From Cyclobacteriaceae bacterium (GTDB lineage: Bacteria > Bacteroidota > Bacteroidia > Cytophagales > Cyclobacteriaceae), in the NCBI GenBank assembly GCA_040218415.1, contig JAVJRN010000065.1, positions 1 to 64,000 on the forward strand: 64,000 nucleotides of DNA, in the 5' to 3' direction. Below are positions 23,895 to 39,787 of this stretch, piece after piece (the first letter of the stretch is position 1; each line of letters begins with the position of its first letter). The translations under genes were made by a program, and so were the position numbers. The notes below the pieces were generated by a model that was not told where the DNA came from, searched no databases, and saw nothing but the letters and a program-made list of their open reading frames with translations.

Positions 23895-23971
23895 ATGGTA
23901 ATTCTATTTTTGCAACCGCAATTTTAAGCAAGGCACTTCTAAAAGCCTAGTTAAAAAACGCAAAAACGGAT

Positions 23972-24044: not shown

Positions 24045-24051
24045 CAAAATT

Positions 24052-24084
24052 AACCTGATTCAATTTAGAGTCAGGTTTTTTTTG
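24052..24084 (+). terminator. rho-independent terminator after tRNA-Lys
   Basis: aacctga-ttcaatttagag-tcaggtt followed by ttttttt. Confidence 0.55.
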
Positions 24085-24086
24085 TT

Positions 24087-24899
24087 TTAAAGCATTGATA
24101 TTTTCTGTAATGCTTCCTCCATTTTTTTTTCTAATTTCAGCACTCTTTCCTCCACGATTGAAGGTGGATTAAGGTATTTAGAATAAACCGATTCAATAGA
24201 CCAAATCTCAATTAAGTCGTTATTTTGGATAATTAGTTCAGGGTAGTTTGGGTCATCTGCACTGAGTTTGAGTAATTCTTCTTGGTGCGAGACCATTCTT
24301 CGGGTTGTAATATTCTCACGATTTACCACAGTAATAATTTTTTTCTCATATTGGTGGAGAGAATCAAGTTCTATCCTTTTTCCCACCAGTATGTCGCCAT
24401 GGTGCAATCCTTGTTGATGGTATTCCATTTCGCTACCGTTCATCTCGAATGCTCGATACAAGCTTGGGTCTTTTACGGGTAAATTGATCTGAGTGAGTGT
24501 ATTGATGAAATCTTTCGTATTGTGGCTTACAATGTAGTCAAGGTATTGATGGACTTGCACCAAGCTAATTCCATTGTTTTTTGGCTCGGAGATGTTATTT
24601 TTTTTCGGTTCGAGCTTATGAGCTTTGTTTAGTTTTTGATTCAATAAGTCGATGCTGTAAATCTCGCTTACCGTCAGCTTTCTTGTGAGGAGCACGTCAA
24701 TAGAAATGTTAAAATAACCAGCTATCTGAATCAGCGTGTCGATTTTGGGTTCAGATCGGCCTTCTTCGTAAGCACCAATACTTGGTCGAGCCAGATTGAA
24801 TAAACTCGCGAACTCTGCCTGGCTGATTCTTTTGGTTTGCCTGATCTTTTTGATGTTTTCGCCAATAAAAGATAATTTTTTGCTAATATTTTGAGCCAT
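24087..24899 (-). CDS. XRE-family HTH + S24 (LexA/CI-like) peptidase-domain repressor
   Basis: Track ORF is 24087..24941. The likely start is MAQNISKKLSFIGENIKKIRQTKRISQAEFASLFNLARPSIGAYEEG (an XRE HTH). The C-terminal ...AFEMNGSEMEYHQQGLHHGDILVGKRIEL... matches the S24 Ser-region (GDSM...GD.v.v pattern with Ser retained), with downstream Lys candidates. Confidence 0.6.
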   Translation of the reverse strand: MAQNISKKLSFIGENIKKIRQTKRISQAEFASLFNLARPSIGAYEEGRSEPKIDTLIQIAGYFNISIDVLLTRKLTVSEIYSIDLLNQKLNKAHKLEPKKNNISEPKNNGISLVQVHQYLDYIVSHNTKDFINTLTQINLPVKDPSLYRAFEMNGSEMEYHQQGLHHGDILVGKRIELDSLHQYEKKIITVVNRENITTRRMVSHQEELLKLSADDPNYPELIIQNNDLIEIWSIESVYSKYLNPPSIVEERVLKLEKKMEEALQKISML

Positions 24900-24978
24900 G
24901 CTATAACTTTTATCATTTTGTGTCGTAAACTTACCCAACAATTTAGATTTATTTCGATCAACCGAGAGGGAATTTTTA

Positions 24979-25003
24979 GATCAATAGTTCTTATCATTTG
25001 ATC
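24979..25003. promoter_or_regulatory. imperfect inverted repeat GATCAAT-N11-tTTGATC in the divergent promoter region between the XRE/S24 repressor gene and the ybjN-like/pspA genes
   Basis: gatcaatagttcttatcatttgatc. Candidate operator, speculative. Confidence 0.2.
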
Positions 25004-25051
25004 AGCGCTATATTTAGACTTTCTTTTTTAAACTATATCAAGAATTAAAAT

Positions 25052-25447
25052 ATGAACACACATTTCGCAACTGTTAAGGATTATTTGTTAGAACTCGATT
25101 ACACCATCGTTCAAGAGGATGAAAATGATGGGGTTTTGGTAGTAGAAAATGAGGAGGAAGGGATTAAAAATGTAGTACTTATAATCTCTGACCCAATTCT
25201 AATTGTTGAGCAATATCTTTTTGACCTGCCTAAAAACTCCTCGGATATTTACAAAAAACTGTTGGCAAAAAACAGAGATATTATTCATGGGGCATTTGCC
25301 CTTGACGAAACGGGAAATCGAGTGCTTTTCAGAAATACGCACGAATGTGAAAACCTCGACTTGAACGAGATTGAGGCAACCTTGAATTCTTTATCTCTTT
25401 TGCTCAGTGAGTATGCAGATGAACTAATAGGATTCAGCAAGCAATAA
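25052..25447 (+). CDS. YbjN-like (DUF2170/YjfI-like, T3SS-chaperone-like fold) protein
   Basis: 131 aa and acidic. Size and position immediately upstream of a PspA-family gene mirror E. coli yjfI-yjfJ. The assignment is by context and composition, not a confident motif match. Confidence 0.4.
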   Translation: MNTHFATVKDYLLELDYTIVQEDENDGVLVVENEEEGIKNVVLIISDPILIVEQYLFDLPKNSSDIYKKLLAKNRDIIHGAFALDETGNRVLFRNTHECENLDLNEIEATLNSLSLLLSEYADELIGFSKQ

Positions 25448-25473
25448 ATTTTACACAAAAAAATAAAGAAAAA

Positions 25474-26178
25474 ATGAACGTTTTTAGAAGATTATTCAGA
25501 GTAGGGGCGGCAGAAACACATGCTGCGATAGATAAGTTGGAAAATCCAATCAAAATGACCGAACAAGGTATTCGAGACCTTAAAAAAGATCTTGATAACA
25601 GCTTAAGGGCGCTTGCCGAGGTAAAGGCCATGGCCATAAGGGCTAGAAATGATGTGCAAACTAACAAATCAAAGGCGCAAGATTACGAAAGCAAAGCCAT
25701 ACAACTTTTGAAGAAAGCGCAAAGTGGAGAATTATCGGCAGAAGATGCAGATAGACTGGCCACAGAAGCGCTAGCGAGAAAGGAAGAGTTTACACAGGCC
25801 ATGAATGTGAGTAGCGCTGAGCGAGAAAGATTTGATAAGAACGTGGCTCAATTAGATGCAACAGTTAAGAAATTGAAATCAAATATCAGTGGCTATGAAA
25901 ATGAGCTAAGAACATTAAAAGCGCGCGTGAAAGTAAGTGAAGCATCAGCAAAGGTGAACAAGCAAATGGCTCAGATAGATGCTTCCAGCACAGTTTCCAT
26001 GCTTGAGCGAATGAAAGAAAAGGTAACTCAGCAGGAAGCCTTGGCGGAAGCTTACGGCGATATCGCTGGTGAATCAAAGACGTTGGATGATGAAATCGAC
26101 TCGGCTCTTGATGGTAAAAGTGCCAAGGCTTCAGATGATCTAGCCGCAATGAAAGCAAAGCTTGGCTTAGACAAATAG
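25474..26178 (+). CDS. PspA/IM30 (phage-shock protein A / Vipp1 / YjfJ) family coiled-coil protein
   Basis: 234 aa. MNVFRRLFRVGAAETHAAIDKLENPIKMTEQGIRDLKKDLDNSLRALAEVKAMAIRARNDV... is a typical PspA N-terminus and heptad-rich body. Confidence 0.85.
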   Translation: MNVFRRLFRVGAAETHAAIDKLENPIKMTEQGIRDLKKDLDNSLRALAEVKAMAIRARNDVQTNKSKAQDYESKAIQLLKKAQSGELSAEDADRLATEALARKEEFTQAMNVSSAERERFDKNVAQLDATVKKLKSNISGYENELRTLKARVKVSEASAKVNKQMAQIDASSTVSMLERMKEKVTQQEALAEAYGDIAGESKTLDDEIDSALDGKSAKASDDLAAMKAKLGLDK

Positions 26179-26183
26179 TGATT

Positions 26184-26215
26184 ATCATTGGCGATGCATG
26201 TGCATCGCCAATGAT
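26184..26215 (+). terminator. strong palindromic stem-loop 6 bp after the pspA stop (attenuator/terminator candidate, no U-tract)
   Basis: atcattggcgatgca-tg-tgcatcgccaatgat gives a near-perfect 15-bp inverted repeat. Confidence 0.45.
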
Positions 26216-26255
26216 TAAATTCCAAAGACTAAATATTTTTTAATCACAAAAGACC

Positions 26256-26864
26256 ATGACAGAATTGTTAGCATTCGCCATTTCTGGCGTCAACGTTATA
26301 CCTACGATTTTACTAATTTTTACCGTTTTATATTGGTTAATCGTTGTAGTTGGTGTGATCGATATTGATGCTTTGGATTTGGATTTTGATATGGATGGAG
26401 ATTTAAACGGATTAACAAGCGTTTTGTCTTTTTTCAATATCGGGCACATGCCTTTAATGATATTTGTTACGTTTTTTACAATTCCATTGTGGGCGATTAC
26501 ATTGATTTCCAACGATCTTTTGGGTATATCAAGTTTTATAGCCGGATCGTTAATCTTCATTCTGGCAGCAGTGCTTTCTCTTTTTATAGCGAAGTTCTTT
26601 ACCATTCCGATAGCAAAATTTTATCGTAAAATCAGTAAAGAAACCGAAGCAATCAAAAATCTTATCGGACGAGTATGCACTGCTAAGCTGCCTATTTCGC
26701 ATGATAGAAAGGGGCAGGCTGAAATCAAAATCAATGGAACTTCTATACTGATAACCGCGAAGACAAGAGAGGGGTATTTGGTACAGAAAAATGCAACTGC
26801 ACTCATTATTGAATTTCAAAAAGATCAAAATTTTTATTTCGTAGAACCATATCAATTAAACTAA
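26256..26864 (+). CDS. NfeD-like / YqiJ-like (DUF1449) membrane protein
   Basis: 202 aa. N-terminal multi-TM region plus a C-terminal soluble beta-rich tail (...GRVCTAKLPISHDRKGQAEIKINGTSILITAKT...), as in NfeD OB-fold partners of SPFH proteins. Sits immediately upstream of a flotillin gene, like E. coli yqiJ-yqiK. Confidence 0.5.
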   Translation: MTELLAFAISGVNVIPTILLIFTVLYWLIVVVGVIDIDALDLDFDMDGDLNGLTSVLSFFNIGHMPLMIFVTFFTIPLWAITLISNDLLGISSFIAGSLIFILAAVLSLFIAKFFTIPIAKFYRKISKETEAIKNLIGRVCTAKLPISHDRKGQAEIKINGTSILITAKTREGYLVQKNATALIIEFQKDQNFYFVEPYQLN

Positions 26865-26870
26865 CACTCA

Positions 26871-29036
26871 ATGACCGGACCAATTTTTTATGTAGTTATT
26901 GTCATCTCCGCTTTTGTCTTTATCGGACTTATAACGGCTGTTATCAAAATGTACCGCAAGGCTTTACAAGGCCAAGCTATGGTGCGAACAGGAATGGGGG
27001 GCACCATCGTATCTTTTTCAGGAATTTTTGTTGTGCCTATTATTCATAAGCTGGAGGTAATGGATATTACCCTCAAAACAATCATGATTGCCAGAACTGG
27101 CCGAGAGGGATTGATCTGTAAGGACAACATGCGTGCAGATATTAAAGTGACCTTTTTTGTGAGAGTGAATCAAACCGAACAAGATGTAAAGCAAGTTGCT
27201 CAATCCATTGGGAGTCATAGGGCTTCCAGTCAGGAGTCTTTAGAATTGCTTTTTGATGCCAAGTTTTCTGAGGCTTTAAAAACGGTAGGAAAAAACTTCG
27301 ACTTTGTAGAGTTGTATAGCGGAAGAGACAACTTTAAACAAGACATCCTAAATATCATTGGGACGGATCTTAATGGATATATCCTTGATGACTGTGCTAT
27401 CGACTTCTTAGAGCAGACCCCAATGCGGGAGTTGGATGAGAATAATATTCTCGATGCTGAGGGTATCAAAAAGATTATCGAATTAACATCGGCACAAAAG
27501 ATGTTATCCAATCAAATTCTAAGAGAAAAAGAGAAAACATTAACCAAACAAGATGTTGAAGCAAGAGAAACCATTCTTGAGTTAGAAAGGCAACAAGCAG
27601 AGGCAGAGGCCAAGCAAAAACGAGAAATTGAATCTGCACAGGCCAGAGAAGAGTCAGAAACAGCCAAGGTAAAACAAGAGGAGCGACTTAAATCTGAGCG
27701 GGCACGAATAAGTACGGAAGAAAATCTTCATGTCGCAGAGGAGAATAAGCTCCGGGAAGTGATCGTAGCGCAAAAAAATAAGGAACGTACAGAGGCGATA
27801 GAAACAGAGAAGGTTGATAGAGCTAGACTTCTAGAGCAAACAGATAAGCAACGTTTTGTTGAGATAGCGAACATTGAAAAGGAGAAAGCAGTAGAAGAGG
27901 AACGTAAAAATATTCAAGATGTCATTCGAGAGCGCGTCACAATTGAGAAAACGGTTGTGGAGGAGAAAGAACGAATGAAAGATATTCAAGCCTTTGCTGA
28001 AGCTGATAGAACAAAGAAAGTTGCCATTACTTTAGCGGAGCGCGATGCGGAAGAAGCACTCGTCAAAATGATTAAGGATGCAGAAGCAAGGAAACAAGCT
28101 TCAGAGCATACTGCCAAAAAACAATTGATCGATGCGCAAGCAGCAGAAAATGCCGCAATACATCATGCTCAAGCGAAGAAAACCCTTGCCGAAGCGCAAG
28201 CATCAGAAGCTGCCGCTATAGGCTTGTCAGAAGCACAGGTAATGGAGGCTAAAGCAGCTGCCAAGCAGAAAGAAGGGGACTCAGCTGCTTCCGTGATAGA
28301 ATCGCAAGCAGATGCAGAAGCAAAAGGCATACAGCTGAGAGGCTCGGCTCAGGCAAGAGCTGATCAGGAAATAGGTTCTGTGGCGGCTAAAGTTAATTTT
28401 GAGAAAGGAGAGGCCGAGGCAAATATTATCTCATTGAAAGCCGATGCGGAGCAAAAGAGAGGTTTGGCAGAAGCCAAAGTGATGAAAGAGAAGTTTAGTG
28501 CTGAGGCGGAAGGCATCAAAGAAAAAGCCCAAGCAATGAAAGCTCTTGATGACTCAGGTCGATCTCACGAAGAGTTTAAGCTTCAATTACAAATGAACAA
28601 AGAAGTAGAACTCTCTAGAATCTCTATTCAGAAGGAAATTGCCATGTCACAGGCTTCTGTGATTTCTGAAGCTTTGAAAGCTGCGAAAATTGACATTGTA
28701 GGTGGGGAAACCATGTTCTTCGAGCAGATCGTTGGTGCGATAACCAAAGGTAAAACGATTGATCGAATGCTGACTAATAGCGACGTGTTGACCCAAGTTA
28801 AGGACACCTTCTTTTCAACCGCAAATGGTGATAATTTCAAAGAGAGGTTACGTGACTTTGTAGATCAGTTTGGCTTAAATATTCAGGAAGTAAAAGATCT
28901 AAGCGTTTCTGCTTTGCTATTGAATTTGACAGGTAGAGCTTCAAGTGATGGAGAAAAGAACATGATTTCTCAGTTGGGAAAAGTATCCGAGGCACTTGGT
29001 ATCTCTAATCAGAAAATTGCCGATTTAGGATTGTAA
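26871..29036 (+). CDS. flotillin-family SPFH/Band-7 protein (YqiK-like) with long E/A/K-rich coiled coil
   Basis: 721 aa. N-terminal TM, then an SPFH domain (...MVRTGMGGTIVSFSGIFVVPIIHKLEVMDITLKTIMIAR...), then ~400 aa of EA/K-rich repeats typical of flotillin tails. Confidence 0.85.
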   Translation: MTGPIFYVVIVISAFVFIGLITAVIKMYRKALQGQAMVRTGMGGTIVSFSGIFVVPIIHKLEVMDITLKTIMIARTGREGLICKDNMRADIKVTFFVRVNQTEQDVKQVAQSIGSHRASSQESLELLFDAKFSEALKTVGKNFDFVELYSGRDNFKQDILNIIGTDLNGYILDDCAIDFLEQTPMRELDENNILDAEGIKKIIELTSAQKMLSNQILREKEKTLTKQDVEARETILELERQQAEAEAKQKREIESAQAREESETAKVKQEERLKSERARISTEENLHVAEENKLREVIVAQKNKERTEAIETEKVDRARLLEQTDKQRFVEIANIEKEKAVEEERKNIQDVIRERVTIEKTVVEEKERMKDIQAFAEADRTKKVAITLAERDAEEALVKMIKDAEARKQASEHTAKKQLIDAQAAENAAIHHAQAKKTLAEAQASEAAAIGLSEAQVMEAKAAAKQKEGDSAASVIESQADAEAKGIQLRGSAQARADQEIGSVAAKVNFEKGEAEANIISLKADAEQKRGLAEAKVMKEKFSAEAEGIKEKAQAMKALDDSGRSHEEFKLQLQMNKEVELSRISIQKEIAMSQASVISEALKAAKIDIVGGETMFFEQIVGAITKGKTIDRMLTNSDVLTQVKDTFFSTANGDNFKERLRDFVDQFGLNIQEVKDLSVSALLLNLTGRASSDGEKNMISQLGKVSEALGISNQKIADLGL

Positions 29037-29046
29037 TTATTGCTCA

Positions 29047-29080
29047 AAAGTCAGAGATCGCAAGACTCTGACTTTATTTT
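29047..29080 (+). terminator. hairpin plus T-rich tract between the flotillin gene and the giant ATPase gene
   Basis: aaagtcagag-atcgcaaga-ctctgacttt followed by atttt. Confidence 0.35.
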
Positions 29081-29094
29081 CCATCAAAAATTTT

Positions 29095-32000
29095 ATGGCA
29101 CAAGAATCAAGCAACACTTTGGAGGCAGGAACCTACGAGTTATTACGTAGTAGAATTGTGTCTACTGCCAATCAGCTCAAATCGCAGATACAAAAACTTA
29201 ACGAGGAACGGAAAAATGTTTTCGGTACCATCGAAACAAAAGTTCTGGCCTCCGAGCGTATAACTACGAATAACAATTGCATTCCGTGGGATATGTTTTC
29301 TTTCGGATCAAAGTTTCTCTTCGGATACAATGTGCATGTGGGGCTAAGAAGTGAGGTGAAGATTGATGATGTCTTTAGTTTTTATGAATACCAATCGGAC
29401 CATACATTTCATGAGCTCAACCTTAATTCGATTATAACCGATAGTGTTTTTCTTGACGATTTCCATAAACTATACAAATACTACAAAAACACCCAATTCT
29501 TACGGTTTGCCTCTGTTGGGCCATTTTTTCACATGGTTTTTCGAACTGGAAAGGACGTTAATGACGTCAAGACTTTCAAGTGGCAGATCAAAGAAGAAAA
29601 GCTGATTTATATTGATAATCGCAGTGATCATGAATATAAATTTCCAGCACAATACGAGTTTGAGTGGAAAAGAACCCGACGGCAAGATTATCGTGATGGG
29701 CTACATCCGCATGTGTCGATAGAGGACCGAGTTTTTGTCGAATGTGTTGGAGGAGATTTAACCATTAAGGTAGAAGACAATACTGATGATGGTCAAGGTA
29801 TTTATAGGGAAGATGTAGTTAATTCACTGCAGACACTTGATGATGCCGAATTTAGCTATTCTGTAGTTGGAAATTTGATATTGATAAAGGCTAAACCATA
29901 CCAAGAAGGTGAGCGGTATTTTGTCTTTAACGAAAAATTGAAGGAAGTAAAACGGATAGACACCCTGTCCGAATCGGGCATATTATTGCCTGATAATCAA
30001 GGATTGATATTTAGTAACGGCTATTATTTACAGTCTGGAGAGTTCAAGTTGTTTGATTTAAGTCTTCGTCACATGCTCTTCGAAAGGCGCATCACTTCCC
30101 TGAATGGAGAGGATTTTATTTATGTCTTTTACAATAGAGAAAAGGGTATTTATCTGCTGCTGAACTATAATATTATATCTCAAAAAGTAGAAAATCCGAT
30201 TGTTTGCCATGGTTTTACCACTTTTGAAAATGGCGAAATGTGCGTTTTTAAAGCAGATGATGAACCTAAAAAACACCATGCTATTCAAATATGGCAAACG
30301 CCTTTTACAGGCGTAAACTTTCAGGCCGAAGAAAAATATGATTCTTTTTTGCAGAAAATCGGCAATAAGGAAGTCGTACGTGCCATGGCGGAATGTCAAG
30401 AAATCATCAATCTCATTCATCGAGAGGAGATTTATTCAGATTTATACATCGATATCATTAAGAAAGCTACCGATACGATTGATACCTATCATTGGCTCAA
30501 CACCGAGGGGTATGACTTGGATGCACCGCTCAAAGAAATTCGTGGTGTGGCAGAATCTGCGGTAGATGAATACGAAAAAGTACGGAAAATTCGAGAGACC
30601 TCTGAGCATCGATTAGCAGAATTGGCCGAGTTACACAGCCAGATACTAAAAAAATCGAAAGCTTCTTTTGGGAAAATCACAGCTTATGTAAGTCTTCTTG
30701 GCGAGATAAGGTCGGTAAGAGGAGAGGTCATAAGTGCCAAGGATCTAAGATATATTGATCAGAAAAAACTTGCGTCATTTGATGCTGACTTATCTGAAGC
30801 AGCTGATAATGTATCAGAATCATGTGTGAGATTTCTTGCACAGGATCATGCTTTGAAACCTTTTCATGATAAAATAGTCGAGTTTAAAACGAAAATAGAT
30901 CAAATAAAAAAGGTAGTTGAAGCCAATGAACTACTCCAATCAGGAGAGCAAATTGCGCAGGAGTTAGACCTTTTAATTGAAACTGTAAGCAATTTAAAAA
31001 TTACAGATGCCACACAAACAACAGCCATCATTGAAGGTATTTCGGATATTTATGGAAGCTATAATCAGGTAAAAAATAAACTTTCGAATATTAGAAAAGG
31101 TCTGCTTGAATCGGAAGGTAAAGCGGAGTTTAATGCAACAATCAAGCTCTTGGAGCAAAGCGTATCCAATTATTTGGATATCTGTGACACCCCAGCCCAA
31201 TGTGACGAATACTTGACGAAGTTGATTGTGCAGGTGGAGGAATTGGAAGGAAAATTTTCTGAATTCGACGAGTTCATTGACTTGATTTCTCAAAAGCGTG
31301 AAGAGGTATACAATGCCTTCGAATCAAAAAAACTCTACCTAACCGAGCAAAGAAACAAAAAGGCAAATCAGCTATTTCAAGCCGCTGAAAGAGTTCTGAG
31401 CGCCATTCGCAATAAGTCCGGTACGCTCAAATCCAAGCAAGACATCAATGGTTACTTTGCTTCAGATTTAATGGTGGAGAAAATCAGATCGATTTCCGAT
31501 CAACTACTTTCGATAGGAGAGACTGTAAAGTCGGACGACTTAACCAGTCAGTTGAAAACGATCAAGGAGGATGTGCTGCGTCAATTAAAAGACAAACATG
31601 AACTTTTTGCTGCTGGAGACAATATTATGCAGATGGGAAACCATCAGTTTTTCACGAATAACCTCACGCTTGATTTAAGCATGGTAGTGAAAAATAAAGT
31701 ACCACATTATCACCTTGCAGGAACAGATTTTTACGAGGTGATAAAAAACGACCAACTCGCCGCACTTTCTCATCTCTGGGATCAATCGTTGATTTCCGAA
31801 AACAGTGGTGTATACCGTGCTGAGTATTTGTCTATTTCGCTTTTTGAGTCAATGAGATTGTCAAAACTAGTCCATGAAGAAAAGACGATCAGTTTAGAAA
31901 CTTACCAATTGATGAGTGAAGCGGAAAAAGTGTTTTTTGTGCAAAGGCAAATGGCTACTCGTTATGGCGAGGGCTACATCAAGGGTGTTCATGAATTTGA

Positions 32001-33981
32001 TACCCTCTTGATTCTAAATGAAATCATTTCTCTCAGCCAGTTTGCTGGTCTATTAAAATATGATCCTGACGTAAGAGCTCTGGCAAAATTTTTCTGGAAT
32101 TCTTGCATAGCTGACGAGACTAAAAAGCTCTATGAACGTCAGATAAAAGCTGCGGCACTCATTTTATCCGTCTTTCCTTATTCGAGGGAATTCGAAGGGA
32201 TTGTCAATGACTTGAAAAACGAGGTTCAATCTCAGGAACCAAAGTTTTATGATGTCAAAACAGACTACTTAGCGGTTGCGCAGTATATTTTCGATCAGTT
32301 TTCCGAAGGAGATTATTTTATTGTCAGTCAAGTAGCGTCCGAGTGCCACCAACTCTTTTTGAATCATTTAAAGCAAAGCAAAGCCGATACCCAATTTACA
32401 GCTTCTTTGAAAGGCCTTAGCGATACGCCTGCCTTGTCTATGAGGATGATCCGACAGTGGCTTTCCGCGTTCATTAAGGAAATTGACCAACCTCATTTTT
32501 TGGATTATGCTGATGAAGTCGCTGCGCTGTTATTTTATGAAGATTACAGTGAAATTTATGTCAAAAAAGTAAGTCTATACAAGACAATCGAAGGCTTAAA
32601 AGGCTCACACAAATTAATAGAAGATGGGAAATACACTTTTCATCTAAATAATTTTTTCAAAAGATTATCAGCGTTTATCAGGGTAGATGTTCCTGCTTTT
32701 AAGCAGTTAGCGGCCCTTAAAAAGAGCTTATCTGAAGACTATCGTACTGAACTAAGACTTCATGAGTTTAAACCGCGTGTACTCTCTTCTTTTGTTAGAA
32801 ATCAGCTGATCGATAGTGTTTATTTCCCGCTAATTGGAGCTAACCTAGCCAAGCAAATAGGAACAGCCGGAGAGAATAAGAGAACCGATTTAATGGGTTT
32901 GCTTTTGCTAGTTTCTCCGCCCGGCTATGGTAAAACAACGCTTATGGAGTATATCGCCAGCAGGCTTGGGGTTATTTTTATGAAGATCAATGGACCAGCC
33001 ATTGGTCACGAAGTGACTTCATTAGATCCTGCTGATGCGCCGAACGCTGCTTCTGCTGAGGAATTACAAAAGCTGAATTTGTCTTTTGAAATGGGCAATA
33101 ATGTGATGATTTATCTGGATGATATCCAGCATTGTAATCCCGAATTTCTTCAAAAGTTTATCTCCATGTGTGATGCGCAGCGCAAAATCGAAGGAGTATA
33201 CAAAGGCAAGACCAAAACATATGATTTTCGTGGAAAAAAGGTTTGTGTAGTCATGGCAGGCAATCCTTATACCGAGTCTGGAGATAAGTTTCAAATTCCA
33301 GATATGCTTTCCAATCGAGCAGATATTTATAATCTTGGTGATGTCATAGGAGACTCTGAAGAGGCTTTTAAAATGAGCTACATTGAGAATTGCCTTACTT
33401 CTAATCAAATTTTAAGTCGTTTGGTGTCGAAAAGCCTTTCCGATGTTCGAACTGTTATTAAGTTAGCAGAGCAAGGTTCTGGTGAAGGACTAAAATTTGA
33501 AGTCAACCACACAGCTGAAGAACTTCAGGAATATGTTTCAGTTATTAAGCATTTGATGAGGGCTAGAGATGTTGTACTCGCCGTGAACAGCCAGTACATC
33601 GCATCAGCGGCGATGGCTGAGGAGTATAGAGTAGAGCCTGCTTTTAAACTCCAAGGGTCATATCGAGACATGAATAAGCTTGCTGAAAAAATACTCCCTA
33701 TGATGAATGAAGCTGAGGTGGAGACAATCATACAATCGCACTACGAAAATGAGTCACAGACCTTGACATCAAATGCGGAGGCGAATTTGCTGAGATTTAA
33801 ACAACTAACTGGAGTGCTGAGCCCAGAGCAATCTGATCGTTGGCGGTATATTATTGGCGTTTTCGCTGAAAAGCAAAAGCAATTAGGCTATGGCCAAAAC
33901 GCAAAACTTGTCGAGGGTATTGATGCTATTGCCAACAATCTCAAAGGAATATTGGATAAAATACAACAGAATAAACCTTAA
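29095..33981 (+). CDS. giant (1628 aa) protein with a single C-terminal-third MoxR/AAA_5-type AAA+ ATPase module; N-terminal ~1250 aa of unknown function
   Basis: Uninterrupted 4.9-kb ORF. Walker A ...LLLLVSPPGYGKTTLMEYIA... (nt ~32.92 kb). Walker B ...NVMIYLDDIQHCNPEFLQKF.... Sensor-1/Arg region ...KVCVVMAGNPYTESGDKFQIPDMLSNRADI.... This order and spacing is typical of AAA_5/MoxR/dynein-type modules. I recognise no motif in the rest. Confidence 0.7.
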   Translation: MAQESSNTLEAGTYELLRSRIVSTANQLKSQIQKLNEERKNVFGTIETKVLASERITTNNNCIPWDMFSFGSKFLFGYNVHVGLRSEVKIDDVFSFYEYQSDHTFHELNLNSIITDSVFLDDFHKLYKYYKNTQFLRFASVGPFFHMVFRTGKDVNDVKTFKWQIKEEKLIYIDNRSDHEYKFPAQYEFEWKRTRRQDYRDGLHPHVSIEDRVFVECVGGDLTIKVEDNTDDGQGIYREDVVNSLQTLDDAEFSYSVVGNLILIKAKPYQEGERYFVFNEKLKEVKRIDTLSESGILLPDNQGLIFSNGYYLQSGEFKLFDLSLRHMLFERRITSLNGEDFIYVFYNREKGIYLLLNYNIISQKVENPIVCHGFTTFENGEMCVFKADDEPKKHHAIQIWQTPFTGVNFQAEEKYDSFLQKIGNKEVVRAMAECQEIINLIHREEIYSDLYIDIIKKATDTIDTYHWLNTEGYDLDAPLKEIRGVAESAVDEYEKVRKIRETSEHRLAELAELHSQILKKSKASFGKITAYVSLLGEIRSVRGEVISAKDLRYIDQKKLASFDADLSEAADNVSESCVRFLAQDHALKPFHDKIVEFKTKIDQIKKVVEANELLQSGEQIAQELDLLIETVSNLKITDATQTTAIIEGISDIYGSYNQVKNKLSNIRKGLLESEGKAEFNATIKLLEQSVSNYLDICDTPAQCDEYLTKLIVQVEELEGKFSEFDEFIDLISQKREEVYNAFESKKLYLTEQRNKKANQLFQAAERVLSAIRNKSGTLKSKQDINGYFASDLMVEKIRSISDQLLSIGETVKSDDLTSQLKTIKEDVLRQLKDKHELFAAGDNIMQMGNHQFFTNNLTLDLSMVVKNKVPHYHLAGTDFYEVIKNDQLAALSHLWDQSLISENSGVYRAEYLSISLFESMRLSKLVHEEKTISLETYQLMSEAEKVFFVQRQMATRYGEGYIKGVHEFDTLLILNEIISLSQFAGLLKYDPDVRALAKFFWNSCIADETKKLYERQIKAAALILSVFPYSREFEGIVNDLKNEVQSQEPKFYDVKTDYLAVAQYIFDQFSEGDYFIVSQVASECHQLFLNHLKQSKADTQFTASLKGLSDTPALSMRMIRQWLSAFIKEIDQPHFLDYADEVAALLFYEDYSEIYVKKVSLYKTIEGLKGSHKLIEDGKYTFHLNNFFKRLSAFIRVDVPAFKQLAALKKSLSEDYRTELRLHEFKPRVLSSFVRNQLIDSVYFPLIGANLAKQIGTAGENKRTDLMGLLLLVSPPGYGKTTLMEYIASRLGVIFMKINGPAIGHEVTSLDPADAPNAASAEELQKLNLSFEMGNNVMIYLDDIQHCNPEFLQKFISMCDAQRKIEGVYKGKTKTYDFRGKKVCVVMAGNPYTESGDKFQIPDMLSNRADIYNLGDVIGDSEEAFKMSYIENCLTSNQILSRLVSKSLSDVRTVIKLAEQGSGEGLKFEVNHTAEELQEYVSVIKHLMRARDVVLAVNSQYIASAAMAEEYRVEPAFKLQGSYRDMNKLAEKILPMMNEAEVETIIQSHYENESQTLTSNAEANLLRFKQLTGVLSPEQSDRWRYIIGVFAEKQKQLGYGQNAKLVEGIDAIANNLKGILDKIQQNKP

Positions 33982-33985
33982 AAAA

Positions 33986-34135
33986 ATGACCATTGAATTA
34001 TTAAAGTCTATTTTAATCATCATCGTCGTTATTTTCCTTTTTGGACTCCTATTTAATGTTTTATTTCGAGTTGGATTGATTTTAATGATTTTGCTGGGCA
34101 TACTTTATTTGTTCAAAAAGGTATTTGTTGAGTAG
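33986..34135 (+). CDS. 49-aa hydrophobic two-TM peptide
   Basis: Track ORF 33890..34135 overlaps the end of the giant gene. I trimmed it to the ATG 5 bp after the giant gene's stop: MTIELLKSILIIIVVIFLFGLLFNVLFRVGLILMILLGILYLFKKVFVE. Confidence 0.3.
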   Translation: MTIELLKSILIIIVVIFLFGLLFNVLFRVGLILMILLGILYLFKKVFVE

Positions 34136-34157
34136 TACTTAAGAAAATAAGAAAAAC

Positions 34158-34703
34158 ATGTTTAATCTATTTAAGAAGAAAAAAGAGGAGCCATTGTACG
34201 ATGTTACAAACCTCAGCGTGAAGGATCTCGATGTGGGATTTGTGTTTGATTATGACATGAAATCTTGGATAGTCAAAGAAGTTCTAGAGTACGATTGGGG
34301 CAACAATAATTTTACGCGAGAGTATAAAGTAGATAGTGGTGATGAGGTTCGGTTTCTCGAAGTGGAGGATGATGACGAGTTGTTCATTGTTTTGTCCAAT
34401 TCCATTAGCCTTAGGAAAATAGAAGAAGACGTGGCGGAAAAAATCCGGAAAAAAGGCAAATCACATAAGAAAATTCAGTTTGAAGAGGAAACTTATTTCT
34501 TGGAGGAAGAATCAGCTGGATATTTTAAAAGTGCTGCCAAAAAAGGAGATGATTGGGAGGAGTTTATAACCTGGCAATATTTGAATGAAGAAGAAACCCG
34601 TGTCGTATCTTTGACACAGTGGGATGAGCAAAACATTGAAGCTTCGGCAGGGATAGTGGTAAAACCTTATCAGATATCTAACATAACACCAAGCGGAAAT
34701 TAA
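34158..34703 (+). CDS. DUF4178-like protein
   Basis: 181 aa. Two beta-rich half-repeats with W/Y-rich cores (...KSWIVKEVLEYDWGNNNFTREYKVDSGDEVRFLEVEDDD... and ...WEEFITWQYLNEEETRVVSLTQWDE...) resemble the DUF4178 pattern as I remember it. The PspA / DUF350 context supports this. Not profile-verified. Confidence 0.4.
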   Translation: MFNLFKKKKEEPLYDVTNLSVKDLDVGFVFDYDMKSWIVKEVLEYDWGNNNFTREYKVDSGDEVRFLEVEDDDELFIVLSNSISLRKIEEDVAEKIRKKGKSHKKIQFEEETYFLEEESAGYFKSAAKKGDDWEEFITWQYLNEEETRVVSLTQWDEQNIEASAGIVVKPYQISNITPSGN

Positions 34704-34740
34704 TATGCTTCGATTGAACTAAAAACACAGTAATATTCAT

Positions 34741-35469
34741 ATGAAATACCAAATTCTAAAATATTTATGCTTGTTTACTTTGGCGTTTTTCGTCTCTTCA
34801 TGTGGAGGTCCAAAGTATCAAAAAAATCCTTTAGATGTAATTGCTCGCGACTTGCCTAGTGATAAGCCTTTCACAGCGATACTCTATGACATGGATGTAA
34901 AAGGTAATTTTATAGAGACGTATTATCATCAATATAAAATTGTGCAAGACGATGGTAATGGAAACTTAGACGAGTTCACCACAGGAATGCTCGAAGTGAG
35001 TAAGGAAACATTCAACAAGCATATCAATGACATGGGAATGGAGCTCATGGCGCGAGATAGCACGGGTCAGTTGAGTAAAGGGGCTGCACCTCCGGGTTAC
35101 AACAATTATGTAGGGAATGAAAAATATGGCCAGTGGAAAACCGACAATAGCGGCAATAGTTTTTGGGCTTTTTACGGTCAATATGCTATGATGTCAACCA
35201 TGTTTAATATGATGGCTTACCCTGCTCGTAGAAGTTACTACAACGATTGGCGAGGAGGCTATGCGGGAACTGGTCGAGGTTATTATGGGCCGTCAAATGG
35301 TGGAAGCAGCTACTATGGCACTAATAGCGCTCATGGCCGTAGTACAAAACCTAGTTCAAGTTGGAGCAAAAAGAGATCTTCATTTAGACAAAATGTAGCT
35401 TCTAGAACCTCGAGATCATCTTCGAGTTCAAGTGGATATCGTTCCCGAAGCGGATCCTACGGAAAATAA
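34741..35469 (+). CDS. lipoprotein with Gly/Tyr-rich region and Ser/Arg-rich C-terminal tail
   Basis: 242 aa with lipobox (...FFVSSCGGPK). C-terminus is ...SRTSRSSSSSSGYRSRSGSYGK. Possibly the YdjH/DUF4247-type lipoprotein partner of PspA loci (inference). Confidence 0.5.
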   Translation: MKYQILKYLCLFTLAFFVSSCGGPKYQKNPLDVIARDLPSDKPFTAILYDMDVKGNFIETYYHQYKIVQDDGNGNLDEFTTGMLEVSKETFNKHINDMGMELMARDSTGQLSKGAAPPGYNNYVGNEKYGQWKTDNSGNSFWAFYGQYAMMSTMFNMMAYPARRSYYNDWRGGYAGTGRGYYGPSNGGSSYYGTNSAHGRSTKPSSSWSKKRSSFRQNVASRTSRSSSSSSGYRSRSGSYGK

Positions 35470-35499
35470 ACCTTACCATCCAACCTCACTTATCATCCA

Positions 35500-36360
35500 A
35501 TGCAAATACTCGATAACGTACTTACTAGTCTCACCTACATTGTTGCCAGTTTTATTCTTTTTTTTGTTGGGAAGTTGGTTTATCAACTTTTTCATCCAAA
35601 AATTAAAGTGGCTCATGAGCTGGTTGAAAAGGACAACCTAGCATTTTCCGTTGCGCATGTTGGCTATTTTGTAGGGCTCCTATTGGCTATAGGCAGTGCA
35701 GTGATGGGCGAGTCGTATGGTTTGGTCAATGACTTGATCAATATTGGTATTTACGGTGCGCTATCTATCGTGCTACTCAACCTATCGTTGATCATCAATG
35801 ATAAGTTGATTTTATCAAAATTTGACTTAAAGAAGGAAATCATAGATGATCAGAACTTGGGTTCTGGTATTGTAGAAGGTGCCAATGGGATCGCTACAGG
35901 ATTGGTGGTATTGGGCGCCATACATGGTGAAGGATTTGGGGTTGGCGGACCGATAGTCACTGCTGTCTGTTACTGGATACTTGGTCAGTTGATTTTATTC
36001 ATTACCACTTTCGTGTATAATGCCATCACTCCATACGATATTCATGAGCATATCGAAAAGAAAAATACCGCAGTGGCCATCGGCTATGCAGGCGCTATTA
36101 TTGCCATTGCGAACCTGATCCGTTTTGCATTGATGCATGATTTTGAAAGCTGGGTGATTACTCTACAGGACGTAGCAATAGATGTGACGATCGGGTTGAT
36201 ATTTTTGCCAATCGCACGTTTTGTTACCGATAAAATATTGCTTCCAGGACAAAATATTACTGATGAGATTGTGAATCAAGAGCATCCTAACTGTGGAGCT
36301 GCGCTGGTGGAGGCATTCGCATATATTGGTGGTTCAGTATTGATTTGTTGGGCGTTATAG
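35500..36360 (+). CDS. membrane protein with two DUF350-type repeats (YjfL-like)
   Basis: 286 aa polytopic. Each repeat carries the DUF350 signature: ...LFHPKIKVAHELVEKDNLAFSVAHVGYFVGLLLAI... and ...AITPYDIHEHIEKKNTAVAIGYAGAIIAIANLI... (compare the E. coli YjfL pattern TPY-x-EEI-xxGN-AvA). Confidence 0.55.
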   Translation: MQILDNVLTSLTYIVASFILFFVGKLVYQLFHPKIKVAHELVEKDNLAFSVAHVGYFVGLLLAIGSAVMGESYGLVNDLINIGIYGALSIVLLNLSLIINDKLILSKFDLKKEIIDDQNLGSGIVEGANGIATGLVVLGAIHGEGFGVGGPIVTAVCYWILGQLILFITTFVYNAITPYDIHEHIEKKNTAVAIGYAGAIIAIANLIRFALMHDFESWVITLQDVAIDVTIGLIFLPIARFVTDKILLPGQNITDEIVNQEHPNCGAALVEAFAYIGGSVLICWAL

Positions 36361-36364
36361 ACTT

Positions 36365-37900
36365 TTGAAATACACCAGCACTTTACTTAAGGTTGCCTTA
36401 TTTGCTACTGGTTTATCCGGTATTGTTTCCGAATACACTTTATCCACTCTTGCCACATATTTCTTAGGAGACTCTGTTTTCCAGTGGACAATGATTGTTT
36501 CGGTCATGCTTTTCTCCATGGGCCTGGGGAGTCGATTGAGTAAAAAATTTGAAACGAACCTTATGGAGCGTTTCGTTCTCATCGAATTCGGATTATCGTG
36601 TATCGCATCTAATGTTACCTTGATTGTATACTCAGTATTTGCTGTCTACGGACAAACTGCCATTGTTATCTACGGGCTTTGCATCACTATTGGTCTATTT
36701 ATCGGGATGGAAATTCCCATCGTTATCCGACTCAACGAACAATTCCAAAGTCTTAAAGTCAATATATCTTCCGCACTGGAAAATGATTATTATGGGAGTT
36801 TAGCAGGAGGTGTTTTTTTTGCATTCATCGGCTTGCCATATTTAGGCTTGACGTATACGCCTCCAATTTTAGGAGCCGTCAATTTCTTTGTGGCTTTGGT
36901 ACTCATCTATGCTGTATGGGAGGAAGTTAAAGCCCAGAAGAAACGATTCATTCTATATTCTGGCATTGTTTTGCTCATTCTACTTTTGAATCTCATTTTC
37001 TCACAGCGAATCGTTGAGTGGGGAGATAAAATCAGGTACCAGGATAGAGTCGTTTACAGTGAGCAGAGTCGATATCAGAAAATAATTTTGACTTATGACA
37101 GAGGTGATTTTTGGCTTTTTCTCAACGGACATCAACAACTGAGTTCCTTTGATGAGGCCATGTATCACGAACCACTCGTGCACCCTGCCATGTTACTTCA
37201 GGGAGACACACGTCGAGTTTTGGTTTTGGGTGGGGGAGATGGTGCAGCAGTCCGAGAAGTATTGAAATACGAACAAGTCGAAGAAATTACCTTGGTCGAT
37301 CTTGATCCGGCGGTTACTTCGCTCGCGTCTAATCACTCCGCCTTGGTTCAAATCAATAAAAATTCGCTAGCAGACCCAAAAGTGCGAATAATCAACCAAG
37401 ACGGGTTCACTTTTTTGGCAGATATAACAAAAAAGTACGATGTAATTATCGCAGATTTTCCTGATCCTAGAACTGTAGATTTGGGTCGGTTATATTCTTT
37501 GGAGTTTTATCAATTATGCTACGCTGCATTGACCCAACATGGTGTGTTTGTTACTCAGGCCGGAAGTCCATATTATGCAACACAGGCTTTTCATTGTATT
37601 GAAAAAACCATAAAAGCAGCCGGTTTCAATCCATTGCCCTTGCACAATCAAGTAGTGACCTTGGGCGAATGGGGCTGGATCATAGGCGTTAAAAACTCTC
37701 GTAAAAACCTTCAGCACGCTGTGCAAAATTTATCATTGGATCATGTGCAGACGGCTTGGCTTACGGAAGATGCACTCACACTGATCAGCTCGTTTGGTGG
37801 GAAGATATTTGATCAGCCAACTGAGTTGATTGAAATCAACAGATTGCATGATCCGGTACTTTTCAAATACTACATGAATGGACGTTGGGATGTTTATTGA
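36365..37900 (+). CDS. membrane-anchored polyamine aminopropyltransferase (spermidine/spermine synthase, N-terminal polytopic domain + C-terminal SpeE domain)
   Basis: 511 aa. ~200 aa of TM helices, then ...RVLVLGGGDGAAVREVLKYEQVEEITLVDLDPAV... (GGGDG dcSAM motif) and ...YDVIIADFPDP..., the SpeE hallmarks. Starts 5 bp after the DUF350 gene. Confidence 0.75.
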   Translation: MKYTSTLLKVALFATGLSGIVSEYTLSTLATYFLGDSVFQWTMIVSVMLFSMGLGSRLSKKFETNLMERFVLIEFGLSCIASNVTLIVYSVFAVYGQTAIVIYGLCITIGLFIGMEIPIVIRLNEQFQSLKVNISSALENDYYGSLAGGVFFAFIGLPYLGLTYTPPILGAVNFFVALVLIYAVWEEVKAQKKRFILYSGIVLLILLLNLIFSQRIVEWGDKIRYQDRVVYSEQSRYQKIILTYDRGDFWLFLNGHQQLSSFDEAMYHEPLVHPAMLLQGDTRRVLVLGGGDGAAVREVLKYEQVEEITLVDLDPAVTSLASNHSALVQINKNSLADPKVRIINQDGFTFLADITKKYDVIIADFPDPRTVDLGRLYSLEFYQLCYAALTQHGVFVTQAGSPYYATQAFHCIEKTIKAAGFNPLPLHNQVVTLGEWGWIIGVKNSRKNLQHAVQNLSLDHVQTAWLTEDALTLISSFGGKIFDQPTELIEINRLHDPVLFKYYMNGRWDVY

Positions 37901-37953
37901 CTGCAATGAGCTTTTACCCAGAATAATTCAAACCCCTCGTCTTCCTATGTGTT

Positions 37954-38634
37954 ATGAAAAAAAGCGAGATGGATTTTCAAAAATTATATGACTTTTTACG
38001 AGAATTAAATACGAGTGACAACAACGATAAAAGCTGGATGGACGATCATCGTGATGGATACGAAGAAGTCCGAGACAGTTACATTTCGTTTCTTGATGAC
38101 CTAAACTCATATTTTAAACAAACAGATCCTAACTACCAGGACACCACTGGGCGAAGAGCGATCAATCGGATCAATAACAATAAAATGTTTCATCCTGAAA
38201 AACCCACTTATAAAGATCATTTTGGGGCTTCATTGGATAAGGCTGAAAATAAGGCTGAATTTTATATTCATCTAGGGATAAATACCTCATTTGTAGCGTG
38301 TGGATTTTATCATGTGCCGAACGACAAACTGAAATTAATCCGTCAAGAAATTGATTATAATGGAAGCGAGCTAGAAAAAATTCTTAATCATCAGGATTTC
38401 AAAAAAACCTTTGGAGGTCTTTGGACAGGCGATTCTTTAAAAACTTCCCCTAAGGGCTATTCAAGCGATCATCCAAGAATAGAGTGGATCAGATTAAAAA
38501 GTTTTGTGGTGCAAAAAGACTTCACCGAGCACGAAGTGGTCAATGGAGGATTTAAAGAACAATTGATTCAACTTTATGAACTCATGCTTCCTTTCAGAAG
38601 GTTTTTGGATATGGCTGTAGATGAACCAGCATAA
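37954..38634 (+). CDS. DUF2461 (TIGR02453-like) family hypothetical protein
   Basis: 226 aa. ...FQKLYDFLRELNTSDNNDKSWMDDHRDGYEEVRDSYISFLDDL... and ...FYIHLG...FVACGFYH... resemble the TIGR02453 family. Not profile-verified. Confidence 0.5.
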   Translation: MKKSEMDFQKLYDFLRELNTSDNNDKSWMDDHRDGYEEVRDSYISFLDDLNSYFKQTDPNYQDTTGRRAINRINNNKMFHPEKPTYKDHFGASLDKAENKAEFYIHLGINTSFVACGFYHVPNDKLKLIRQEIDYNGSELEKILNHQDFKKTFGGLWTGDSLKTSPKGYSSDHPRIEWIRLKSFVVQKDFTEHEVVNGGFKEQLIQLYELMLPFRRFLDMAVDEPA

Positions 38635-38638
38635 TTAA

Positions 38639-39784
38639 TCAATCTCTGATGAAATAGTCCGTTTTCCCAAAAGCAAGCATCATTTTCATGGCTTGCTGAT
38701 TCCACCAAATACCCTGAATATTTTCTGGCAGATCAAGTAGTTTTTTTCTCATCTCCCCCTGAGTCATTGATTTGCTTGCCAGCATCCATGACACTTGTCC
38801 CATAGTTGGAACTTGGGTATGATAAGGCAATACTTCGTAGGAAAGTGTTTTTATTAAATTTTGACGTTCCTTAAACAGTTTCGCTTGTAGATATGGATTT
38901 CCCGATTGGAAAACAATAATTCCTTCAGGCAGCAACATCGGTTCTATTTTTTGTATAAAAGCAATCAGCCCATCATTAGGAACCTCTTGGTCGATATAAA
39001 TGATATCAAAAGTGGAAGAGTCAGCGAGATACTGGTTCAACTTTGCCTCAACGATTTTCGAACCAGTAGTAATCTCCAAAATGCCTTCATTTTTAGTCAC
39101 AAAATCAAAGTACTTATTGTCGAAAGGAGCAATCGAGATATGACTGACTTTTTTCGACTGATTCAGTTGGTCGATGATGAGATGATTGTCGCCTCCGATG
39201 ATCAAAACGTTGGCTGGTTCTGTTTTTAAATAAAGTGCTGGAAGCGCATATGCTTCAGCCAATAAGTGTTTGTCTAAAGTAGAAAACTGCAATTTTCCCC
39301 CATAATGTAGCCAGAAATCATCTTTCCATTCCACTATTTGCGCATCTGCGAATGTGGTTTTTTTTGAGTCTATGACTTTGTCAGTAAAATATTTTTGAGA
39401 GGGAGGCATGGAGTATGGGATAAACCAAACGCCAACGAGCATACCGATACCCAGAAAGTGATTCCTGATTTTTTGTGTTTGACCTATGGCATAGCTACAG
39501 GCGATGGCAACTATAAAAATACTCATCCAACTCTGATTGTAACGCGTGATAAGTTCTGCAACAATAGGCTGAAGCAGTAAAGGAAAAATAAGCGGGATCA
39601 GTAAAAACACTACTTTAAAAAGGTCATTAACTTGATACCGACTTCCTAACCACCAACTAGCCACCACAGTAAAAAATAGTGCGATTTGGTTAGCTAATTC
39701 AAATGGAAAATAAAATTGGTAGATATGAAAGCACCATGTAAAAAGTAGGGCTAAATAAACAAGTTGAGGAAGCTTTTCTTTCAC
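38639..39784 (-). CDS. second membrane-anchored aminopropyltransferase-like protein (divergent; degenerate dcSAM motif)
   Basis: 381 aa. N-terminal TM helices, then ...NVLIIGGDNHLIIDQL..., ...ISIAPFDNKYF... and ...FDIIYIDQEVPNDG.... The architecture is SpeE-like, but the GGGDG box is replaced by GGDNH. Confidence 0.5.
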   Translation of the reverse strand: MKEKLPQLVYLALLFTWCFHIYQFYFPFELANQIALFFTVVASWWLGSRYQVNDLFKVVFLLIPLIFPLLLQPIVAELITRYNQSWMSIFIVAIACSYAIGQTQKIRNHFLGIGMLVGVWFIPYSMPPSQKYFTDKVIDSKKTTFADAQIVEWKDDFWLHYGGKLQFSTLDKHLLAEAYALPALYLKTEPANVLIIGGDNHLIIDQLNQSKKVSHISIAPFDNKYFDFVTKNEGILEITTGSKIVEAKLNQYLADSSTFDIIYIDQEVPNDGLIAFIQKIEPMLLPEGIIVFQSGNPYLQAKLFKERQNLIKTLSYEVLPYHTQVPTMGQVSWMLASKSMTQGEMRKKLLDLPENIQGIWWNQQAMKMMLAFGKTDYFIRD

Positions 39785-39787
39785 GCC

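Follow-up and report, generated by a model that had tools for sequence, protein, structure and literature searches.

Positions 25052–37900 of the window, the whole 64,000-nt stretch of contig JAVJRN010000065.1 analysed here, hold ten tightly packed, co-directional open reading frames on the plus strand, in which two published operon types centred on PspA are united behind one head. The locus is a single tightly packed array of a Cyclobacteriaceae-like (Cytophagales) genome. Its head consists of a divergent helix-turn-helix (HTH)/S24-like regulator and a dyad of a CesT-like protein and PspA. Tail A comprises a YqiJ-type NfeD protein, a YqiK-type flotillin and a giant AAA+ ATPase with a putative β-propeller and a coiled coil, and tail B a 49-aa peptide with two transmembrane (TM) segments, a DUF4178 protein, a Ser/Arg-tailed lipoprotein, an eight-TM DUF350 protein and a seven-TM aminopropyltransferase-like enzyme. 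We consider it probable, at roughly 0.7, that the two operon types on their single head act as a membrane-stress unit with the mechanism outlined below. The initial annotation had also described a composite locus, which it is, with two operon types on one dyad, and its gene identities were essentially right: profile searches support PspA, DUF4178, DUF350 and Spermine_synth, and orthologue profiles support NfeD and flotillin. It counted eleven genes, one more than this range holds; the eleventh would be a DUF2461 gene at 37954–38634, outside it. The intergenic gaps, called on the window in array order, measure 26, 77, 6, 58, 4, 22, 37, 30 and 4 nt. The G+C content of the window is ~39%; that of the array equals its surroundings, and no compositional anomaly was found.

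Several classes of operon are built around the CesT/Tir–PspA dyad (Ravi et al. 2024, mSystems, PMC11237479). In the class called type A here, the dyad is joined by YqiJ/YuaF, a Band-7/flotillin protein and a β-propeller/coiled-coil AAA+ protein, as in Dokdonia donghaensis (ANH61663.1; PMC11237479, section 19 and Table S3); in type B, it is joined by DUF4178, the Ctha_1186 lipoprotein, YjfL/DUF350 and a 7TM spermine synthase, as in Shewanella oneidensis (SO_3765; PMC11237479). A third class is of the E. coli yjfIJKLMC type (PMC11237479). Types A and B are listed separately, and no entry combining them was found in that paper or its supplement; a literature search found no mention of DUF4178 or DUF3686 beyond it. 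The association with a giant ATPase, first taken to be undescribed, is therefore already on record, since type A includes the AAA+ protein. The same claim for the whole three-theme array holds in part: the union is not spelled out in PMC11237479, and it occurs in about ten distinct loci. What is new is the union on one dyad and its recurrence in those loci, together with the conserved peptide of 49 aa and the hairpins that recur at given positions. The parts, like both operon types, had been published before, and the union is a recurring variant of known systems.

A total of 141 related loci were considered. Starting from the AAA+ protein, species-representative genomes were scanned with an alignment of the ATPase, which gave 80 loci, parsed by phmmer; starting from tail B, a DUF4178 alignment scan of metagenomes gave 56. 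The NfeD–flotillin–AAA+ triad is present in essentially all 80 genome loci with visible upstream DNA, across at least seven phyla (the taxa being Bacteroidota, Planctomycetota, Verrucomicrobiota, Desulfobacterota, Clostridia, Kiritimatiellota, Omnitrophota and Fibrobacterota (Chitinispirillaceae)). Of 33 Bacteroidota loci, 25 have the regulator and CesT–PspA head 5′ of the triad, an arrangement that no locus from another phylum shows. Four of 37 Bacteroidota genome loci (L002, L016, L035 and L076) continue past the AAA+ gene into tail B. Among the metagenome loci, 30 have PspA directly 5′ of the series (sTM–)DUF4178–lipoprotein–DUF350–SpeE, where sTM is the two-TM peptide, often with a gene for S-adenosylmethionine decarboxylase (AdoMetDC) after it; seven have the AAA+ gene in that position instead. 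Relatives carry head and tail A, head and tail B, tail A alone, or all three. The union was found in the window and in L081/L088, L085, L096, L076, L002, L016 (the same as L097), L102, L132, L035 and L121, about ten distinct loci. Whenever both tails are present the order is head–A–B, and tail B never brings a second dyad. In the window, the 7.7 kb of the NfeD, flotillin and AAA+ genes lie between pspA and the tail-B genes. The neighbourhood comparison that had been proposed thus finds the gene order co-conserved, and from the conservation of the triad together with the recurrent order of the union it follows that the adjacency is not fortuitous.

The opposing explanation, that a type-A operon came to lie next to a type-B remnant with no functional coupling, is one to which we give little credence. 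The union is rare, and the close relatives L082, L083 and L084, at 67%, 68% and 63% AAA+ identity, have head and tail A or the bare triad. The junction of the tails is also plastic, with an extra gene for a 501-aa protein between sTM and DUF4178 in relatives. All of this would suit a chance neighbour, but the distribution of the union would not. Union loci form three clusters among non-union loci on both of two independent protein trees (neighbour-joining, without bootstrap support), one of the AAA+ protein and one of DUF4178 plus the lipoprotein, always in the order head–A–B. One union clade is kept down to ~55% AAA+ identity: L081 (90%) has the same full array and flanks, and L085 (55%) has the full union again. 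Stand-alone tail B always has the dyad directly 5′ (30 loci), which the union never duplicates, and the AAA+ and sTM genes are 4 nt apart or overlap. This close spacing, with a tail B that lacks its own dyad, argues for co-transcription and a shared PspA.

Two junctions within the array are marked by hairpins. The hairpin 3′ of pspA (26185–26214, plus strand) has a 13-bp perfect stem, a minimum free energy of −27.2 kcal/mol and a z-score of −6.9, and lacks a U-tract. The one 3′ of the flotillin gene (29047–29082 with its U-rich tail, plus strand; −15.2 kcal/mol) has a stem-loop at 29047–29075 with a z-score of −4.0 and a 9-nt loop, followed by UUUAUUUU. Both fold far better than shuffled sequence, which confirms the strong stem-loops noted earlier at these places. 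Neither appears in a consensus terminator scan, whose loop limit of 8 nt is exceeded by the flotillin hairpin. The pspA hairpin is unique in the window, so that an origin as a dispersed repeat is not supported, and in L081/L088 its stem is retained and its loop altered. Of 78 related loci, 60% have a hairpin of −15 kcal/mol or lower in the 80 nt after the flotillin stop. For the 80 nt after the pspA stop the share is 35% of related loci, and for the CesT, NfeD, DUF4178, lipoprotein and SpeE junctions, used as controls, it is 0–7%. The sequences are non-homologous between distant loci: position is conserved, sequence is not. We regard the pspA hairpin as a candidate attenuator or mRNA-stabilising 3′ structure, and the flotillin hairpin with its U-rich tail looks like an intrinsic terminator or attenuator. 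The recurrent positions fit, and do not prove, a graded expression by attenuation, with more of the polymer-forming proteins than of the downstream enzymes. The internal attenuation suggested in the initial annotation is consistent with this recurrence across loci and sits less well with the missing U-tract after pspA.

Both hairpins might instead be full terminators, which would divide the array into three transcription units, with yqiJ–flotillin and AAA+-to-speE each having its own promoter and signals. The strength of both hairpins and the U-tract of the second would agree with such a division, as would their recurrence at these two junctions across phyla; in most phyla, moreover, the triad stands without pspA and so needs its own promoter there. 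We nevertheless judge the division unlikely, because only ~40 nt (pspA) and ~20 nt (flotillin gene) separate hairpin and start codon, leaving little room for promoter and leader, and because the first hairpin has no U-tract. A sigma-70-type promoter scan was at chance level, in a scan not designed for Bacteroidota promoters.

In the head, the regulator gene (24087–24941, minus strand) encodes an XRE-type HTH protein (Pfam HTH_3, E = 3.5e-12) with a weak S24 (LexA-like) C-terminal domain, presumed to be the local repressor. The S24-like domain has a plausible Ser (NGSEM) and an Arg-Arg where LexA and CI carry the catalytic Lys; on this ground it may be a non-cleaving sensor. The divergent regulator gene is also found 5′ of the dyad in 25 Bacteroidota AAA+ loci and in 7 of the 16 stand-alone tail-B loci with enough upstream DNA, and the Dokdonia operon has a divergent ‘cHTH+Protease’ gene in its context (PMC11237479). 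The 110-nt divergent control region (24942–25051) between the regulator and CesT-like genes contains a direct repeat, TTT(C/A)GATCAA, in copies 23 nt apart. The sole stretch kept in the 90%-identity relative L081 is TTATCATTTGA(T/C)CA, and an operator search of the region gave the short direct repeat only, poorly kept in this nearest relative. The first gene of the array (25052–25447, plus strand) encodes a CesT/Tir-like small cytosolic chaperone-like protein of the YbjN superfamily, which matches CesT_Tir_1 over its full length (PF22550, E = 3.7e-53) and also YbjN (E = 1.5e-7); similarity to E. coli YjfI/DUF2170 was not found. It had been read as YbjN(DUF2170)-like, of which the YbjN half stands and the DUF2170 half does not. 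Directly downstream lies pspA (25474–26178, plus strand), whose product belongs to the PspA/IM30 family of the ESCRT-III superfamily (PF04012, E = 5e-42; 144.4 bits against a cutoff of 33.9) with residues 2–229 covered, and is 25% identical to E. coli YjfJ (E = 2e-7).

Tail A opens with the YqiJ/YuaF-type NfeD membrane protein (NfeD2; 26256–26864, plus strand) and the YqiK-type flotillin (SPFH2; 26871–29036, plus strand). The two window proteins by themselves are below Pfam thresholds, and sequence searches of the PDB with them were empty. Profiles were built from 24 orthologues of each and compared by hhalign with E. coli YqiJ and YqiK. The NfeD protein has as its best direct Pfam match YqiJ_N at E = 0.16; its orthologue profile matches E. 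coli YqiJ with a probability of 96.3% (E = 1.6e-9) and YuaF (2K14) at E = 0.053, and 14 of the 24 orthologues match YqiJ_N. It is the flotillin partner. The flotillin has an N-terminal TM segment, an SPFH domain, a long Ala/Glu-rich coiled coil and a C-terminal domain, and matches NCBIfam FloT at 1.6e-4. Its orthologue profile matches YqiK with a probability of 100% (E = 7.3e-40, 397 columns) and QmcA at 3.6e-3, and 2 of 24 orthologues match Band_7, the best at 3.3e-13.

The third member of the triad is a cytosolic AAA+ ATPase of 1628 aa (29095–33981, plus strand), built from an N-terminal helix, a β-rich, propeller-like DUF3686 region, a long middle part of coiled-coil/helical character (DUF7902) and, at the C terminus, one AAA+ module (Pfam E-values of 3.8e-181, 9.7e-25 and 7.4e-7 for DUF3686, DUF7902 and AAA). 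Its Walker A reads GPPGYGKTT and its Walker B LDDIQH; Walker A, the Asp pair of Walker B, the sensor-1 Asn and a candidate Arg finger do not vary among 13 homologues. The closest, though weak, resemblance of the AAA+ module is to the p97/Cdc48 type, and a profile search of the PDB matched p97/Cdc48 over ~39 residues around the P-loop only. AlphaFold2 models of the N-terminal 480 and C-terminal 434 residues were computed from shallow alignments of 11–13 sequences. The first shows a helix and ~28 strands for which Foldseek returned only propellers (pLDDT 58.6, TM-score ~0.2); this low-confidence model is consistent with the published propeller description.

More than 4900 homologues of the ATPase are in databases, mostly named ‘DNA repair ATPase’ or ‘MoxR-like ATPase’, and a partial ‘DNA repair ATPase’ from a Cyclobacteriaceae metagenome-assembled genome matches the window protein at 100% identity. 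If the name were right, the protein would be a DNA-repair enzyme unrelated to the membrane genes around it. The names in the source records, the Pfam description of DUF3686 and a weak RuvB_N match (3.2e-5) speak in that direction, as does the gene for an SRAP (SOS-response-associated peptidase) protein 2 kb upstream. However, the similarity to RuvB is confined to the P-loop region, and no nuclease, helicase or DNA-binding domain was detected in the ATPase by Pfam search. The linkage to NfeD and flotillin is near-invariant in at least seven phyla, and this invariant neighbourhood suggests that both names are misleading. A repair enzyme is thus very improbable here, and we know of no experimental basis for the name. 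The SRAP gene itself (22371–23120, minus strand) lies at the same place in L081; it is probably unrelated to the operon and could have encouraged a ‘DNA repair’ naming of the neighbourhood. The ATPase is genomically tied to flotillin, not to PspA.

Tail B begins with the gene for the 49-aa sTM peptide (33986–34135, plus strand), conserved among relatives, whose ATG lies 4 nt past the AAA+ stop codon and in L081 overlaps it as ATGA. The peptide carries the motif FxxLFKxG...YLFxKxF and matches no Pfam family; its homologues occur in more than 25 loci, always immediately 5′ of DUF4178, within a single large branch of the type-B loci that includes union and stand-alone loci alike. It is not among the operon components published in PMC11237479. 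The DUF4178 protein (34158–34703, plus strand; PF13785, E = 6.5e-19, 68.9 bits against a cutoff of 25), with 56 metagenome relatives, is soluble and β-rich. It is followed in all tail-B loci by an orthologue of the lipoprotein (34741–35469, plus strand), which has the lipobox FVSSC in its translation and a Ser/Arg-rich low-complexity tail and matches no Pfam family. In position, and in having such a tail, it corresponds to the lipoprotein described as ‘Ctha_1186 + low-complexity’ for the published type-B operon. Next come the eight-TM tandem DUF350 protein of the YjfL family (35500–36360, plus strand; two domain stretches, PF03994, E = 9.4e-55) and a membrane-anchored protein (36365–37900, plus strand) which by its sequence is an aminopropyltransferase-like enzyme. 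The latter has an N-terminal multi-TM region and the motifs GGGDG and DFPDP, and matches Spermine_synth (E = 2.9e-42) and NCBIfam PRK03612 at equivalog strength, as a sequence-level match (E = 6.6e-164; 546 bits against a cutoff of 472).

An additional gene stands between the 49-aa peptide and DUF4178 in L081 (15035–16540) and also in L086, L088 and L129, loci that share 86–98% DUF4178 identity with the window. Its 501-aa product has a signal peptide, a TPM-like N-terminal stretch recognised by eye and several TM segments, and no Pfam match. The window has just a 22-nt gap at this place (34136–34157); given the high identity, this difference at the junction of the tails is very recent.

Downstream of the array, and convergent to it, lie a second, shorter membrane SpeE-like protein (SpeE2; 38639–39784, minus strand; Spermine_synth, E = 3.5e-12) and, co-oriented with it, AdoMetDC (39788–40090, minus strand; AdoMet_dc, E = 4.8e-16). 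SpeE2 has a degenerate nucleotide-binding motif, that for decarboxylated S-adenosylmethionine (dcSAM), reading IIGGDNH instead of GGGDG; it may be non-catalytic or of different specificity, and it is a probable associate of the polyamine module. AdoMetDC has an intact ESH in its self-processing motif, LLAESHCALHTFPE. AdoMetDC supplies dcSAM, the aminopropyl donor. The convergent pair is also present in L081 and L088 and in L090, a type-B locus that stands alone; in nine other tail-B loci the AdoMetDC gene lies 3′ of SpeE in the same orientation, as the next gene in most cases. A linkage of AdoMetDC to the type-B operon has reportedly been noted before. With these two genes the polyamine-type theme reaches ~40090, past the reported range. 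The DUF2461 gene that had been counted as eleventh (plus strand; PF09365, E = 2.2e-55) starts 53 nt after speE, co-directional, with no terminator detected in between. It is probably not part of the system, because it is present in L081 and L088 and not in other union loci.

The preferred reading, a membrane-stress unit with two tails, would work as follows. Envelope or membrane stress would relieve the local repressor, the CesT-like protein would keep PspA assembly-competent, and PspA, as an ESCRT-III-type polymer, would seal or remodel the damaged inner membrane. The NfeD–flotillin (SPFH) scaffold would organise the site; a parallel is the B. subtilis SPFH protein needed to link PspA to the membrane (PMC8581546). 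The AAA+ ATPase may then drive ATP-dependent remodelling or disassembly of the scaffold or the polymer. Tail B might use dcSAM to aminopropylate a polyamine or another membrane-proximal acceptor, and this could change the charge and stability of the membrane or envelope. The hairpins after pspA and the flotillin gene would raise the output of the two polymer-forming proteins above that of the enzymes encoded downstream.

Several points weigh against this reading. We infer every mechanistic step from gene context and family knowledge. The union is a minority arrangement, seen in 4 of 37 Bacteroidota genome loci and in 7 of 37 tail-B metagenome loci, and the two tails clearly work without each other. 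Since the triad stands without an adjacent PspA in most phyla, a Vps4-like action of the ATPase on PspA is not required. A canonical aromatic pore loop is not evident by eye in the ATPase, and the model of its C-terminal 434 residues is of low confidence (pLDDT 63.7), with generic AAA+ folds at a TM-score of ~0.2 in Foldseek. For the regulator, the Peptidase_S24 match (E = 1e-3) is weak and below the cutoff of the Pfam search, and the usual catalytic Lys is not obvious. The pspA hairpin may not terminate transcription, because it has no U-tract. Related membrane SpeE-like enzymes, finally, are said to have given no spermidine or polyamine on heterologous expression.

A bolder version of the membrane-stress unit, which we find rather doubtful, takes the triad as a plug-in cassette, repeatedly gained or lost at the fixed site pspA|sTM/DUF4178, so that one PspA pool would serve an integrated repair machine with a non-polyamine acceptor. 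On the same doubtful footing, this machine would combine an ESCRT-III-like polymer with a cage of SPFH protein, a giant remodeller driven by ATP and an aminopropyltransferase embedded in the membrane, and possible acceptors, no likelier, would be a lipid head group or the Ser/Arg-tailed lipoprotein. If the union is one functional unit, it would show, on genetic grounds, that a single membrane-repair event is served by two modules associated with PspA. These modules, flotillin/AAA+ scaffolding and membrane-local aminopropyl transfer, have so far been discussed only separately. An ATPase that partners flotillin rather than PspA would also be a prediction for a family of thousands, most of whose members now go by the name ‘DNA repair ATPase’. 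In practical terms the value is modest: the parts are published, and the carrier seems to be a metagenome-assembled genome.

Between an SH3-domain gene and the regulator gene lie a tRNA-Lys(UUU) gene (23972–24045) and a canonical terminator (24052–24077); the tRNA was the only match in an Rfam scan of 24000–41000. Its position 40 nt from the regulator gene, the patchy distribution of the array and the frequency of HTH regulators of this type in defence islands would be expected of an anti-phage defence or mobile island inserted by tRNA-Lys. Such an island is nonetheless hardly credible. PADLOC gave no defence-system match in the locus, its matches to a coiled coil (JetC), a generic methyltransferase (mad2) and an HTH being coiled-coil or methyltransferase-fold noise; neither integrase nor transposase was found in the flanks, and the G+C content and the synteny with L081 speak against it as well. 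Further 5′ (17512–22013) is a set of a LytTR response regulator, a His_kinase and a TonB-dependent receptor (CarboxypepD_reg+Plug). The same set is found inverted downstream of the AAA+ gene in Reichenbachiella versicolor (L082:15383–20454), and the region thus shows local synteny with rearrangement. The Bacteroidota-like union locus L085 has an HKD phospholipase D (PLDc_2) gene adjoining its regulator (3544–4230, minus strand), an association reported for Proteobacteria (PMC11237479). Convergent downstream of the L085 array (19158–24598, minus strand) are genes for an amine oxidase, a second Spermine_synth protein and an ion channel, which resemble published ‘third group’ variants.

Among known systems, ESCRT-III/Vps4 and HflK/C–FtsH offer a functional analogy only, that of a membrane polymer or cage and an AAA+ machine. 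Outside the generic P-loop region the window AAA+ module has no homology to Vps4 or FtsH, and in place of an MIT or protease domain the ATPase has a putative propeller and ~700 residues of helical spacer. In B. subtilis pspA–ydjGHI, PspA shares its operon with an SPFH protein by which it is recruited to the membrane (PMC8581546). Its partners in that operon are given as proteins with ZnR/NTF2-like and TPM domains and a Band-7 protein that is soluble (PMC11237479), which differs from the DUF4178 and lipoprotein of the initial annotation, and unlike the window the operon has no AAA+ protein, NfeD or polyamine enzyme. The analogies drawn earlier to E. coli yqiJK and yjfIJKLMC agree with the annotated K-12 record. 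Like the window, the yjfIJKLMC operon has a paralogue of PspA beside a small chaperone-like protein, along with a membrane protein of the DUF350 family and an enzyme related to polyamines. Its YjfI, however, is a DUF2170 protein without detectable similarity to the window CesT_Tir_1 protein, and its enzyme is an ATP-grasp spermidine ligase, whereas that of the window is aminopropyltransferase-like; ATP-grasp, DUF2491 and DUF1190 had no match in the window array by Pfam search. The yqiJ–yqiK pair (NfeD2–flotillin/SPFH2) is homologous and in the same order as in the window, but neither an AAA+ gene nor PspA is adjacent to it, and YqiK has 553 aa against 721 aa for the window flotillin, which is extended in its coiled coil and C-terminal region.

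The closest counterparts are the two published operon types themselves. With type B the window shares the genes for DUF4178, DUF350 and the 7TM enzyme, a lipoprotein gene at the equivalent position, and the dependence of the tail on the CesT–PspA dyad. In Shewanella the dyad lies mid-operon and is of the DUF2170 type, with a gene order different from that of the window; the window, in turn, lacks the ribbon-helix-helix gene, has the extra conserved 49-aa two-TM peptide, and has the triad intercalated between pspA and the tail, so that dyad and tail are not adjacent. With type A it shares the five genes in the same order and the divergent regulator with HTH and protease-like domains, but its array runs on, unbroken, past the AAA+ gene into the type-B genes. 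From the order and the flanks across loci, the window locus is therefore best described as a type-B operon with the triad placed between pspA and its sTM/DUF4178 gene or, equivalently, as two tails on one head.

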